A stretch of 64,000 nucleotides of DNA from NCBI GenBank assembly GCA_031396065.1, contig JANNJZ010000418.1:9030-73029 (forward strand). The letters are read 5' to 3'. Positions within the stretch are counted from its first letter, which is position 1. The number at the start of each line of letters is the position of its first letter. The notes beneath the pieces were generated by a model, which saw only the letters and a list, made by a program, of their open reading frames with translations, was not told the origin of the DNA and searched no databases. Of the stretch, positions 28,564 to 31,471 are shown piece by piece. A program made the position numbers and the translations under genes. Source of the stretch: Pyrinomonadaceae bacterium (GTDB lineage Bacteria; Acidobacteriota; Blastocatellia; Pyrinomonadales; Pyrinomonadaceae).

Positions 28564-28796
28564 AGCCCGGCCACGTTCACATCGACGAATTGCGCGTGAG
28601 AGTTCCCGGATTGAGCCGCGAAGAAGGGCAACGCCTGGGAGCTGCGATTGAACGGCAATTGGCGAGCACGCTGCCGCGACCGTTGACGTCGAAAAAGATT
28701 TCCCAGCTTTCGCTGAGGATCGAATCTCCACGATCGGCTTCCGTCGAACGGATTGCCTCGAGCGTAGCAGCGAGAATTCGTCTCAGCACCGAGTGA
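28560..28796 (+). CDS. Small (78 aa) eCIS-associated protein
   Basis: A TTG start overlaps the upstream stop. The N-terminus VHIDELRVRVPGLS resembles the C-terminal motif of the ORF at 24186-25082. Confidence 0.5.
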   Translation: MKPGHVHIDELRVRVPGLSREEGQRLGAAIERQLASTLPRPLTSKKISQLSLRIESPRSASVERIASSVAARIRLSTE

Positions 28797-31471
28797 GAAC
28801 TATGCAAGCCAAAGCGAACAAGTCAATGAGCGCGGTTCAAAGTACTTCCCGGGAAAGTTCGACGTCAGAACGATCCCGAGCGAGATCAGGCGCGGCCAAT
28901 CATCATCGTCAGAAGCAACTGGCAGTACGAGAAGCTCTGAATCCTCGCGGCTTGAATAACGCCCTCGGTTTTCCAGGACAGAGTTCCGGTTTGTTGCTGC
29001 AAACAAAATCTGATTCCCGAAAGAGTTCGTCGTCGACTGAATCGCCAGTCGTCCCGTCACACGTACGCAGTGTAATGGCTTCGCCGGGCCGGCCGCTCGA
29101 TCGCGCCACCCGTAACTTTATGGAGCAACGCTTCAGTCATGATTTCAGTCGCGTGCGGGTCCACGACGATGGCGCCGCAACCGAATCAGCGCGCACGATG
29201 GCCGCCCGGGCTTACACTGTCGGTCAACACATCGCTTTCGCGCCGGGAAGATATGCGCCGCACTCGCACGCAGGCCGGCGGTTACTCGCGCATGAATTGA
29301 CGCACACGATCCAACAACGCGGACTTCAACGAGCGACCGGCGGCATCACGATGCCATTAGCGACTGAGAACCAGAGGTATGAACAGGAAGCTCATCGAGT
29401 TTCCGCCGCGATTTGGAGCGGTGGCAATTTGCCTGCGCTCACTCTGGCGCGCCGGCCAGCGCTGCAGTTGGATGGGCCGGCATACAACCTTCGGCTGACG
29501 TACCCACCCAATCACACCGAGAGCCACAGTGCTCTGCCCCTGGTCGAGGCGCTGCATGTGCTGAAGAGATTTGGCGATCGCGTTGAAGCGCATTTGGAGG
29601 GCGGCCTCGCTGGTCATCGAGCCTTGCGAGAAATTCACGAGGATCAATACGTCGTGAGCCGCGTCGCTGATTTGTTTGGCGGCCGTACTTTCCCGCCGCT
29701 GACGATCTGGACCACGCCGCGGACGTACTTAATCCAGGGACGCGCCGCGATTGGCCGAGCAGATGTCAACGGCGCTACGCGCTTGCTTCAGCAAGCTGCG
29801 CAGGCGAGTCGTCGCGCCGAACGCACCGTTTACGAATACCGGGAAGGCACCATTGCCGGGGCAGAGAGAGCCATCTTCGGGCTGGAAGTAGTCCAGGTTG
29901 CCGCGGCTACCATCGTCACAGTTGGCACCGGCGGCACCGCTGCCGGTGTCACCGGCAGCCTTTTGGTAGGCGCGGGCTACGCCGGCGCGCAACGATTGGC
30001 CGGTGAGGCGTCGAGGGTTCACTACGGTCTCCAGGATCGAATCGATTGGGAAGGCGTGGCTTTCGACACATTCTTTTCGCTCGTGGCTGGTAGGTTTGGA
30101 GGCAGACTCGGCGCTTCTGTCACACGAGCGCTCGCGCCAAGACTAGGTACCCGGCTCGCCGGCCGAATAACCACTGCGGCTGTCACGAACTTGATCGTTG
30201 GACGGGCGTCGGGTTTGGCGCACGCCGTGGCCCGGGAAGTATTTGACGCCGCGCGTGATGAGAGGGAGTTGACGGTCGACGGTTTTATTAACCTGCTCGC
30301 GGAACAACTCAGCCTGCGCGCTGCATTTTTCGATCTTGTTTCGACCGCAGCAGGCTCGGCAACGAGCGCAGCACGTCCAAGGCCACCGCAACCGCCATCA
30401 CCGACGGGACCGGCGCTTCCAGCCGCTCGTCAACAGCCACAACTTAGATCTCTACAAGGAGGTGACACGCGGCCCGTGCCCACGCGTGAGGGGCGCGTTC
30501 TTTCTCCCTCGCGCGCACTTCCGGCGCGAACTGCGGAACCACCCACACGTGTTGCGCCACTTGTGGGACCAACGCCACCGCGAACACTTCCGTCCTCTCC
30601 GGCAACATCCTCAGCGAGAGGGCCAGGGACCGCGACGGTGCCGACCTCATCTCCGAGAACAACAACGACGATGACGCCGCCGCGCGCGAGCGCCCCCCAG
30701 GCAAGCACGGCGACCGCGGAGAGGCAGGGAAACCTTGCATTAGCTCGCCAACCCCAACCAATCATCGAGCCCGTCGTTCGTCCGAGGCCACAACTCGTCC
30801 CTGCTCCGGCCCAGGAACCAACGTCGGTGACAGCGCCAAGAGCAAGCGCCTCCACGGCGACCTCACCGTCCAGTTCTGTGTCCACTGCAGTAGCTATTAA
30901 TGCCGCAACCGGGCCTACCAGCCATCCTGGACCACGGCGACGGAATAAGCCGACGGGACTAACGACTGCATACGATGATGCGATACCGCTCGTTTGGTAC
31001 AAGCACTTAAGCTACTACGAGTCACCCATCATTCTTGAGGGGAACCCTTATGAAATAAACGTGCAGAGACGACTGCCCCGCGGGCACGAAATTGGTGTGC
31101 ACTCTGAGTACTTCCCTGAGAAGGACAAAATCTTGCTACTTCTCCCTGAACCGCGCAGACCAAACGTCGCACGGCAGTTTAAGAATACACTTGCAGAGTA
31201 CGGCTTCGTTTGGGGGGATGAATACCAACCCGATCACATCCAGGATTTGGAATGGAGCGGACACGACGGCTTTGACAACTTGTGGCCTCTGGCATCAGGT
31301 CCGAACCAGCTCGCGGGCGGCCAACAAAATCTACGGCAACCGCTGAGGTATTACGCAAACTACAATTCTCCAACGCCCATCAATTTGCCCATTCTGCAAT
31401 GCAAACAGTTACCCGCTTCGGAAAGGGCGCTCTACCGGTATTTCAGGATTAACCAAATACGCAGGCTCTGA
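28793..31471 (+). CDS. DUF4157-domain eCIS effector candidate with a Pro-rich linker and an HNH-like C-terminal domain
   Basis: GRPLDRATRNFMEQRFSHDFSRVRVHDDGAATESARTMAARAYTVGQHIAFAPGRY...RRLLAHELTHTIQQ is the DUF4157 signature including HExxH (DNA ~29281-29320). A Gly/Ala-rich hydrophobic segment and a ~200-aa Pro/Ala/Thr/Ser/Arg-rich linker follow. The C-terminus reads PDHIQDLEWSGHDGFDNLWPLASGPNQ (DNA ~31229-31300). The start is the GTG at 28793 or the ATG at 28802. Confidence 0.8.
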   Translation: MRTMQAKANKSMSAVQSTSRESSTSERSRARSGAANHHRQKQLAVREALNPRGLNNALGFPGQSSGLLLQTKSDSRKSSSSTESPVVPSHVRSVMASPGRPLDRATRNFMEQRFSHDFSRVRVHDDGAATESARTMAARAYTVGQHIAFAPGRYAPHSHAGRRLLAHELTHTIQQRGLQRATGGITMPLATENQRYEQEAHRVSAAIWSGGNLPALTLARRPALQLDGPAYNLRLTYPPNHTESHSALPLVEALHVLKRFGDRVEAHLEGGLAGHRALREIHEDQYVVSRVADLFGGRTFPPLTIWTTPRTYLIQGRAAIGRADVNGATRLLQQAAQASRRAERTVYEYREGTIAGAERAIFGLEVVQVAAATIVTVGTGGTAAGVTGSLLVGAGYAGAQRLAGEASRVHYGLQDRIDWEGVAFDTFFSLVAGRFGGRLGASVTRALAPRLGTRLAGRITTAAVTNLIVGRASGLAHAVAREVFDAARDERELTVDGFINLLAEQLSLRAAFFDLVSTAAGSATSAARPRPPQPPSPTGPALPAARQQPQLRSLQGGDTRPVPTREGRVLSPSRALPARTAEPPTRVAPLVGPTPPRTLPSSPATSSARGPGTATVPTSSPRTTTTMTPPRASAPQASTATAERQGNLALARQPQPIIEPVVRPRPQLVPAPAQEPTSVTAPRASASTATSPSSSVSTAVAINAATGPTSHPGPRRRNKPTGLTTAYDDAIPLVWYKHLSYYESPIILEGNPYEINVQRRLPRGHEIGVHSEYFPEKDKILLLLPEPRRPNVARQFKNTLAEYGFVWGDEYQPDHIQDLEWSGHDGFDNLWPLASGPNQLAGGQQNLRQPLRYYANYNSPTPINLPILQCKQLPASERALYRYFRINQIRRL

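Follow-up and report, generated by a model that had tools for sequence, protein, structure and literature searches.

Proteins that combine a DUF4157 domain, a long linker and a toxin are common and are known as extracellular contractile injection system (eCIS)-associated toxins (EATs; Geller 2021, PMC8213781). More than half of the predicted eCIS effectors carry DUF4157, and 983 of 1130 predicted DUF4157 EATs have no second annotated domain (Danov 2024, PMC11297309). Here we analyse a protein of this design, encoded at positions 28793-31471 on the + strand of a 64,000-nucleotide stretch of DNA from a Pyrinomonadaceae bacterium (assembly GCA_031396065.1, contig JANNJZ010000418.1), hereafter referred to as the window. 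We consider it, with a probability of about 0.65, to be an effector that is loaded into the lumen of an eCIS tube and carries a nuclease of an uncurated HNH clade. This reading is supported because the gene lies in an eCIS operon, because its C-terminal domain (CTD) is predicted to fold with an invariant D-H...N...N motif, and because the best structural neighbours of that domain are HNH nucleases.

Like EATs (PMC8213781, PMC11297309), the window protein carries DUF4157 near its N-terminus behind a probably disordered leader, followed by a long linker and a C-terminal, putatively enzymatic domain; its gene, as with EATs, belongs to an eCIS operon, and an immunity gene, often absent for EATs, is missing. 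It differs from them in that its CTD matches no annotated toxin family, and its gene is located mid-operon, between ATPase and baseplate genes, whereas EATs are usually encoded at the 3’ end.

The closest described protein is Tme (BN159_7576) of Streptomyces davawensis, which combines DUF4157 with transmembrane (TM) helices and a C-terminal His-Me nuclease of the EndA-like type and is about 70% disordered (Nagakubo 2024, PMC11126660). Its nuclease activity depends on the catalytic histidine, and Tme co-purifies with the spike tip and the tube initiator (PMC11126660). The window protein has in common with Tme the N-terminal DUF4157, hydrophobic helices, extensive disorder and a C-terminal, in our case predicted, His-Me-finger nuclease; both genes lie just upstream of tube-initiator, spike and baseplate genes, and for neither is an immunity gene described. 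However, Tme is 2247 amino acids (aa) long and constitutes its cluster's largest open reading frame (ORF), while the window protein is 889-892 aa long and is not the largest. Tape-measure homology is remote in Tme and undetected in the window protein (PHROGs), and the nuclease of Tme is EndA-like (DRGH plus H-N-N) whereas that of the window protein is HNH-like (DH-x13-N-x8-N). As candidates for the multiple TM helices and coiled coils of Tme-like proteins, the window protein has one hairpin of marginal hydrophobicity (Kyte-Doolittle (KD) score 1.82) and long helices modelled with a predicted local distance difference test score (pLDDT) below 50.

Cgo1 and Cgo2 are DUF4157 proteins that fill the tube lumen of AlgoCIS (Xu 2022, PMC8894135). 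Compared by their descriptions, they resemble the window protein, whose leader is probably disordered, in their order of a disordered N-terminus, DUF4157 and a variable CTD and in being encoded in an eCIS cluster, but their CTDs are different (that of Cgo1 is a predicted metalloprotease) and neither a hydrophobic hairpin nor a Pro-rich spacer is reported for them. The DUF4157, long linker and toxin design has thus already been published, both for EATs (Geller 2021, PMC8213781) and for Tme (2024, PMC11126660), and what we describe is a known kind of injected toxin and no new kind of system.

Results

Modular organisation of the DUF4157 protein

The ORF 28793-31471, located as in the original prediction, runs on the + strand and encodes 892 aa from a GTG start codon, and this GTG overlaps the stop codon of an upstream 78-aa ORF. 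The full-length orthologs closest to it, P0002 (886 aa) and P0001 (806 aa), can be aligned with the protein over its entire length. Because both begin at the equivalent of Met4 (MQAR/MQSK), the ATG at 28802 is favoured as the start and is probably the biological one, giving a protein of 889 aa. No second DUF4157 gene is present within the 64-kb window. The protein is modular and consists of a leader, a DUF4157 zincin-like domain, hydrophobic helices, a spacer and a C-terminal His-Me-finger (HNH, H-N-N) domain, distributed as follows:

28793-31471, + strand: whole ORF, DUF4157, hydrophobic helices, Pro-rich linker and HNH-like CTD (ORF call, ortholog alignment)
28802-29092, + strand: N-terminal leader, residues ~4-100, candidate loading signal for the adjacent AAA+ ATPase (composition and shared motif; role by analogy with AlgoCIS)
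29093-29323, + strand: DUF4157/eCIS_core with HExxH (HELTH at 29291-29305; Pfam PF13699)
29324-29848, + strand: helical module and beta-hairpin, residues 178-352, in a small subgroup of relatives only (AlphaFold2, phmmer)
29849-29992, + strand: helical hairpin, hydrophobic and rich in Gly/Ala, residues 353-400, which may insert into membranes (KD score, AlphaFold2)
29993-30370, + strand: amphipathic Gly/Ala/Arg-rich helices, residues 401-526 (long helices in AlphaFold2 at pLDDT <50; kept in 6 relatives)
30371-30949, + strand: Pro/Ala/Ser/Thr/Arg-rich linker, residues 527-719 (composition)
30950-31468, + strand: CTD, residues 720-892 (173 aa), a beta-rich N-terminal subdomain followed by a predicted HNH (H-N-N) beta-beta-alpha core (phmmer, AlphaFold2, Foldseek)
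31232-31306, + strand: putative catalytic core D814-H815...N829...N838, plus D818 and D825 (conservation, model, SpCas9 spacing)

The DUF4157 block ending in HExxH that had been read from the sequence corresponds to the Pfam family now named eCIS_core (PF13699), which matches residues 101-177 with E=4.2e-32 and a score of 110.6 bits, the Pfam gathering cutoff being 22. The segment LLAHELTHTIQQ occupies residues 164-175 (29282-29317), with HELTH at residues 167-171, and the DUF4157 part of the AlphaFold2 model has pLDDT values of 80-87. The long P/A/T/S/R-rich spacer, previously placed at ~30330-30950, is likewise present and is delimited here to residues 527-719 (30371-30949). Over its ~190 aa, it contains 21% Pro and 59% P/A/S/T; in the alignment with P0002 and P0001 it is weakly conserved and differs in length between orthologs. 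A minus-strand ORF inside the linker (30430-31002, 190 aa) was rejected as a by-product of a GC-rich, biased region, the + frame being kept end to end in the orthologs.

A C-terminal domain of probable HNH type

The family of the CTD was collected by an exhaustive phmmer search of 1.84 billion representative sequences. Residues ~706-892 returned 255 clusters (50% identity) at E<=1e-3, 128 of which at E<=1e-10. Nearly always, the matching part forms the very C-terminal end of a protein with 450-1300 aa, the full range of family members being 440 to 2634 aa. An HExxH motif is present in 79 of the 104 matches of at least 400 aa, and 78 representatives also match the DUF4157 domain of the query (phmmer); in these 78, DUF4157 is N-terminal and the CTD is at the extreme C-terminus. 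In a word-indexed search for homologs, the CTD by itself had no match and even the query was missed, and a 20-sequence profile recovered only 7 short proteins. Neither Pfam and NCBIfam nor the PDB sequences contain a match to the CTD sequence at E<=10. Fusions of the CTD to other trafficking domains (PAAR, Rhs, LXG or those of type VI and type VII secretion systems) were not found: 10 long members in which DUF4157 is not detectable are without any Pfam domain.

The HNH-like motif noted originally in this domain is real. Across 157 aligned relatives, D814 is conserved in 98%, H815 in 100%, N829 in 99% and N838 in 100% of sequences, and the positions around them are similarly constrained: D818 (99%), D825 (97%), W831 (100%), P832 (99%), A841-G842 (95%) and Q849 (96%). 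In this alignment, conservation of the D-H...N...N motif is far beyond chance. The motif-bearing segment PDHIQDLEWSGHDGFDNLWPLASGPNQ, which begins with PDHIQDL and ends with GPNQ, spans residues 813-839 (31229-31309). The first half of the CTD is also near-invariant in the 157 sequences, at P720-T721-G722, D729, I731, W735, K737, Y742, G768, V769 and P775.

An AlphaFold2 model of the CTD, computed from a 20-sequence alignment, has a pLDDT of 92.8 and a predicted TM-score (pTM) of 0.83. In this model, D814-H815 end the strand 811-815, N829 precedes the strand 830-834 and N838 is located on the helix 835-847, so that the motif residues sit in a beta-beta-alpha-metal arrangement. A Foldseek comparison with the PDB, a check proposed with the original prediction, pointed to a nuclease fold: the best 17 matches are all HNH nucleases, with E-values of at best 0.04. 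They include the Rhs2-CT endonuclease toxin and, with a probability of 0.96-0.97, Cas8-HNH from type I-F Cascade. Lower matches include the Gme HNH, EsaD, the pyocin AP41 DNase, TagI/McrA, NucB and the Nme1Cas9 HNH. Against a library of viral structures, HNH and EssD-like proteins were found, at E>=0.1. The H-x13-N-x8-N spacing (14 from H to N, 9 from N to N) is that of H840/N854/N863 in SpCas9, and D precedes H in both (D839 in SpCas9); the SpCas9 segment used for this comparison was confirmed against PDB chains.

From the model and the motif, the CTD family very probably belongs to the HNH/His-Me-finger superfamily, as a clade that is divergent and uncurated and has an unmatched N-terminal subdomain of ~100 residues. 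Its membership in the superfamily rests on fold and motif because sequence profiles give no significant match. Nuclease activity of the CTD would follow from the predicted fold and the invariant residues. With HNH/His-Me nucleases (Cas9, Cas8-HNH, McrA, colicin/pyocin DNases, Rhs2-CT) it would have in common the beta-beta-alpha metal core, the D-H general-base pair, the structural Asn and the metal-binding Asn. It differs from them in having no Cys4 zinc site, in its ~100 additional N-terminal residues forming an unmatched beta-rich subdomain, and in the additional invariant D818, D825 and W-P after N829.

Three further observations concern the domain and its borders. At the linker boundary, the CTD opens with the near-invariant PTGLT (30950-30964, residues 720-724), which might serve in packing or mark a site of processing. 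In many members, a Cys directly in front of PTGLT and a second one in ‘TFCE’ (alignment column 854), past the catalytic helix, may form a disulfide or metal pair; both Cys are absent from the window protein and its close orthologs. In P0128 (1626 aa), the CTD is found mid-protein and is followed by DUF4157, and this protein is probably the product of two adjacent cargo genes that are fused or read through.

The eCIS operon of the window

The gene is embedded in an operon that encodes a complete ejection apparatus:

18344-19738, + strand: sigma-54-dependent activator (Sigma54_activat E=3e-62, and HTH_8; Pfam domains), directly upstream of the operon
20346-22832, + strand: sheath
22857-23363, + strand: gp19 tube
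23388-24170, + strand: baseplate-hub/tube-like protein
24186-25082, + strand: 298-aa Ser/Pro/Thr-rich, apparently disordered protein (no family match)
25088-26392, + strand: Pvc16 cap
26374-28563, + strand: Pvc15/Afp15-like AAA+ ATPase with winged-helix domain (WHD), presumed cargo loader (Pfam AAA E=3.5e-29, WHD E=7e-11)
28560-28796, + strand: 78-aa ORF between the ATPase and cargo genes (no family match)
31474-32244, + strand: tube-initiator-like protein, first of the baseplate sub-cluster (weak CIS_tube match)
32255-32530, + strand: 91-aa hub-like protein
32537-33601, + strand: gpD
33598-34161, + strand: gpV spike
34304-34888, + strand: gp25
34892-42290, + strand: three ~800-aa baseplate proteins
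42303-46061, + strand: 1252-aa fibre-like protein with DUF6519 and a right-handed beta-helix

The tube-initiator-like gene starts 2 nt past the stop codon of the cargo gene. There is therefore no room for an immunity gene directly 3’ of it, in agreement with the earlier observation that no immunity-like small ORF is adjacent. A Cis14/Afp14 gene could not be recognised in the cluster. The 298-aa protein (24186-25082) could be an unrecognised tape-measure (Cis14) equivalent; its length is kept in two related loci, L023 (295 aa) and L024 (291 aa), and its C-terminal end, VVIGRLTVEVVPP, is similar to the motif at the N-terminus of the 78-aa ORF. That motif is I-x-x-L-x-h-x-G-like, and a similar one is present in loci L002 and L016. 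Counterparts of the 78-aa ORF are kept in position and size in L023 (78 aa), L024 (75 aa), L002 (86 aa) and L016 (88 aa).

Related loci and gene order

A genome scan with the CTD profile identified 21 loci. In Acidobacteriota, these are from Acidobacteriaceae and Terracidiphilus; in Cyanobacteria, from Nostoc; in Gemmatimonadota, from Longimicrobium; in Gammaproteobacteria, from Dyella and Luteimonas; in Alphaproteobacteria, from Acetobacteraceae; in Actinomycetota, from Microlunatus, Angustibacter and Mycobacterium; and in Bacteroidota, from Sphingobacterium, Haliscomenobacter, Puia, Flavihumibacter, Larkinella and Aquimarina. The CTD family thus spans Acidobacteriota, Proteobacteria, Bacteroidota, Actinomycetota, Cyanobacteria and Gemmatimonadota. 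Homologs of eCIS structural proteins or of the ATPase were found within 10 kb in 16 of 22 loci, counting L022 (ENA contig_51181). In the latter, the region from the ATPase to the CTD (4700-10708) is split into many small ORFs, probably because frameshifts in the assembly have broken up a single DUF4157-HNH gene; frameshifted assemblies of this sort would explain several ‘short’ family members in databases.

The window protein had no record in an exact-sequence look-up. The loci closest to the window are L023 and L024, both metagenomic, and L013 from Acidobacteriaceae. L023 is syntenic with the window gene for gene, the sigma-54 activator included. The order of ATPase, small ORF, DUF4157-HNH gene, tube initiator and baseplate recurs in L016, L019, L023 and L024, and synteny with the tube initiator is kept in L002, L012, L016, L019, L023 and L024. 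Wherever a full-length ATPase homolog is present (10 of 10 loci), it is followed directly by one or more DUF4157 genes. This post-ATPase slot holds one to five of them, in tandem and with differing C-termini where there are several (three in L002, five in L008), and the HNH-bearing gene is first or fourth in the arrays of L002 and L008. Elsewhere it is found at the 3’ end past fibre-like genes (L014, L015) or past the tube initiator (L012). In L012, from Luteimonas kalidii, the HNH-CTD gene (8861-10537, +) is without DUF4157 by BLAST, and another DUF4157 gene precedes the initiator. The variable copy number, the variable position and the swapped middles fit interchangeable cargo and not a unique structural ruler. 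Downstream of the CTD genes of the 21 loci, the only shared ORF families are other DUF4157 genes, ATPases and baseplate genes.

A leader motif shared with a putative second cargo

Residues 1-100 are basic, with 16% K/R against 5% D/E, contain 41% P/A/S/T and are of low hydrophobicity, a composition that fits a disordered leader. L024 has an additional 364-aa gene (L024:9416-10510, +) that separates the DUF4157-HNH ortholog from the tube initiator; its product contains neither DUF4157 nor any Pfam domain. The leader of this product starts with MQAKATKS...VANRLRQKK, that of the window protein with MQAKANKS...AANHHRQKQ and that of P0001 with MQSKTHKT...VANHLRQRQ. A pattern MQxK...AN[HR][HL]RQ[KR] is thus common to the window protein, its orthologs and the DUF4157-less gene of L024. 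The motif [AV]N[HRK][HLI]RQ[KRQ], which was derived from the same sequences in which its rarity was then counted, has only 4 occurrences among the 956,000 residues of the six-frame translations of the window and 24 loci, each ~32 residues past the start Met of a leader-bearing gene. That the shared leader marks a common loading signal is suggestive only, and the 364-aa gene of L024 may, judging from this resemblance, encode a second cargo with the same signal.

In AlgoCIS, DUF4157 is dispensable for loading while the disordered N-terminal region is required, and cargo pairs of one eCIS have a common, system-specific disordered N-terminal signal (bioRxiv 10.64898/2026.05.27.728243), with which the motif found here agrees. 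Because the N-terminal region is the part needed in AlgoCIS and DUF4157 is dispensable there, we take the leader (residues 1-100), rather than DUF4157, as the likely loading element of the window protein. The original prediction of a modular eCIS effector is supported by the operon, the predicted fold and the Foldseek matches, but the role of loading domain that it gave to DUF4157 falls more plausibly, by analogy with AlgoCIS, to the leader.

The middle region and its hydrophobic hairpin

The hydrophobic, glycine-zipper-like segment that had been noted is present, as the string VVQVAAAT...YAGAQ at residues 366-400 (29888-29992). Residues 353-400 contain 21% Gly, and the top Kyte-Doolittle 19-mer scores 1.82, which is marginal for a transmembrane helix. 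AlphaFold2 models this segment, with low confidence, as a helix-turn-helix with its turn at 379-386. The run on the middle region (residues 95-530, 7 sequences, mean pLDDT 60.5) predicts a beta-hairpin and a helical bundle at ~228-360 (pLDDT 70-94) and long helices over residues 362-530 (pLDDT <50). A Foldseek search with the 95-530 model returned noise only, and insignificant matches to alpha-pore-forming toxins were not used as evidence.

The middle region has no Pfam, NCBIfam or PHROG match. Residues 181-526 are matched in just 3-6 of the 78 full-length family members (phmmer), and because so few have this region in common the CTD family is considered modular. The distance from DUF4157 to the CTD ranges from 137 to 2225 aa among family members, and at least one hydrophobic 19-mer (KD>1.5) is found between the two domains, at a similar relative position, in 60 of the 78.

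Discussion

Weighing the effector reading

Several results weigh against an eCIS effector with an HNH-type nuclease, at the level of both the domain and the whole protein. The PDB profile search with the CTD profile was empty at E<=10. A curated HNH link fails at the level of sequence profiles, only 1 of 20 members touching PF01844 in Pfam, at E=0.34, and an hhalign comparison of the CTD profile with the SpCas9 HNH segment was negative, a single-sequence template being too weak for this comparison. The Foldseek matches do not go below E=0.04, have a query-normalised TM-score (TMq) of ~0.25 and align only ~57 of 187 residues, and the first ~100 residues of the CTD are without a structural match in the PDB. 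The ‘zipper’ is marginally hydrophobic (KD 1.82), and AlphaFold2 models it with a confidence below 50. The shared leader is a short motif, and the pairwise BLAST comparison is not significant (E=0.83). Finally, no immunity gene is conserved downstream in the 21 loci, which is unusual for an antibacterial nuclease.

A possible but doubtful alternative is that the protein is a hybrid resembling Tme. As a component related to tape measure proteins, it would extend through the tube lumen, dock on the initiator and the spike and perhaps set or stabilise tube length, and it would end in a nuclease. The gene lies immediately upstream of the tube-initiator and baseplate genes, the position that defines tme-like genes (PMC11126660) and one that is kept in L016, L019, L023 and L024; it is the single DUF4157 gene of an operon in which Cis14/Afp14 is not recognisable, and the long low-confidence helices, the hydrophobic segment, the long disordered stretch and the C-terminal His-Me nuclease are all as in Tme. 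However, PHROGs are empty for the protein at E<=0.01, with one match at E=0.77 (noise) among 7 relatives, and the ORF is not the largest of its cluster (892 aa against 1252 aa for 42303-46061). A family that ranges from 440 to 2634 aa, that occurs in arrays of up to five DUF4157 genes and that takes varied positions in the operon is better explained by interchangeable cargo. The nuclease clade is also different, HNH (H-N-N) against the EndA-like DRGH of Tme, and the disordered 298-aa protein (24186-25082) could itself be the missing ruler. A tape-measure-like role, which the original prediction had named as the alternative to its own reading, is thus weakened by the lack of PHROGs homology and by the variability of arrays and positions, and is kept as a rival. 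The missing immunity gene, here and in 21 related loci, is what would be expected if the protein were directed at the producer, in lysis, release of particles or extracellular DNA (eDNA), or DNA processing, rather than injected from cell to cell. Tme provides a precedent, being a nuclease of low activity that affects eDNA release and sporulation of the producer (PMC11126660), and EATs have been speculated to contribute to producer lysis (Geller 2021, PMC8213781). We nevertheless regard a producer-directed role as improbable, given that the operon has a complete ejection apparatus and large fibre-like proteins typical of target-binding eCIS, that the DUF4157 cargo of AlgoCIS is lumen-loaded and expelled on contraction (PMC8894135), and that an intracellular location of this eCIS is not indicated here. 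It is more improbable still that the CTD is an inactive, degenerate His-Me-finger fold serving to bind nucleic acid or protein, or as a structural plug or adaptor. Such a reading would accommodate the fact that just ~57 residues are HNH-like, with weak E-values and no HNH profile match, as well as the large invariant N-terminal subdomain (W735, K737, Y742, G768, P775) without counterpart and the missing immunity gene, but the near-total conservation of the metal-binding and general-base positions D814, H815, N829 and N838 in at least 150 diverse sequences is the signature of retained catalysis, and their geometry is predicted at pLDDT >90.

The favoured reading, a lumen-loaded effector with an HNH-type nuclease, resembles Pne1 of metamorphosis-associated contractile structures (MACs) and EAT9 (restriction-endonuclease-like) in that these are eCIS-delivered nucleases; by their published descriptions, they are set apart by the absence of DUF4157 within the protein and by other nuclease folds.

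Proposed mechanism of effector loading and delivery

By inference from AlgoCIS and from Photorhabdus virulence cassettes (PVC), the Pvc15-like AAA+ ATPase, the product of a gene just upstream, would recognise the leader, and the largely unfolded chain would then be threaded into the tube lumen. DUF4157 would act as an accessory domain, with processing or chaperoning as possible functions. Sheath contraction would expel the protein into or onto the target cell. In analogy to phage tape measure proteins and to Tme with its TM helices, the hydrophobic hairpin may assist the chain in crossing a membrane or in residing there. The predicted fold and the invariant residues suggest that the CTD binds a divalent metal via D814 and N838, with H815 as general base, and cleaves nucleic acid. 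The lack of a conserved immunity gene suggests a protected producer, a non-kin target or low activity: the enzyme may be kept unfolded or sequestered in the producer, the target may be something other than kin, such as a eukaryote, or the enzyme may have little activity, which has also been reported of Tme.

A bolder version, which we consider a long shot, is that of a four-in-one molecule belonging to a Cis14-less lineage, in which a packaging leader, a zincin that self-processes the protein at the invariant PTGLT, a tape-measure-like helical scaffold that inserts into membranes, fills the tube and perhaps gauges it, and an immunity-free nuclease of an eCIS-restricted HNH clade not recognised before, with its ~100-aa accessory subdomain, are all combined. 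Were this the case, tape-measure/effector chimeras would be a general cross-phylum solution and not a peculiarity of Streptomyces.

The CTD family appears to be uncurated; with at least 255 clusters at 50% identity, it is widespread and essentially confined to DUF4157 proteins, in which it nearly always follows DUF4157 and a hydrophobic segment. This will not surprise a specialist, but on the favoured reading of an injected HNH-type effector one ‘dark’ C-terminal module of DUF4157 proteins gains a concrete and testable assignment as an HNH-type nuclease family. If confirmed, a CTD profile in domain databases could annotate hundreds of eCIS cargo genes, and the protein would represent a second design of DUF4157, hydrophobic helices and nuclease after Tme. 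A compact 889-aa protein with clear module boundaries would also be suited to cargo swapping in engineered injection systems.

Further observations on the window

The sigma-54 activator directly upstream of the operon (18344-19738) is conserved in the syntenic locus L023; upstream of the sheath gene, a search for the sigma-54 consensus TGGCAC-N5-TTGC that allowed 1 mismatch gave no site. At the distal end of the operon (genes 42303-47038, +), the DUF6519/beta-helix protein is accompanied by a 405-aa protein with CarboxypepD_reg/transthyretin-like domains, and both are probably tail-fibre or receptor-binding components. The ORF coordinates of these two distal genes overlap (45821 vs 46061), and the start of the second is likely further downstream. 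Outside the eCIS operon, a 923-aa protein encoded at 11625-14396 (-) is an unusual fusion of a trypsin-like peptidase and a PLD-like (PLDc_2) domain.

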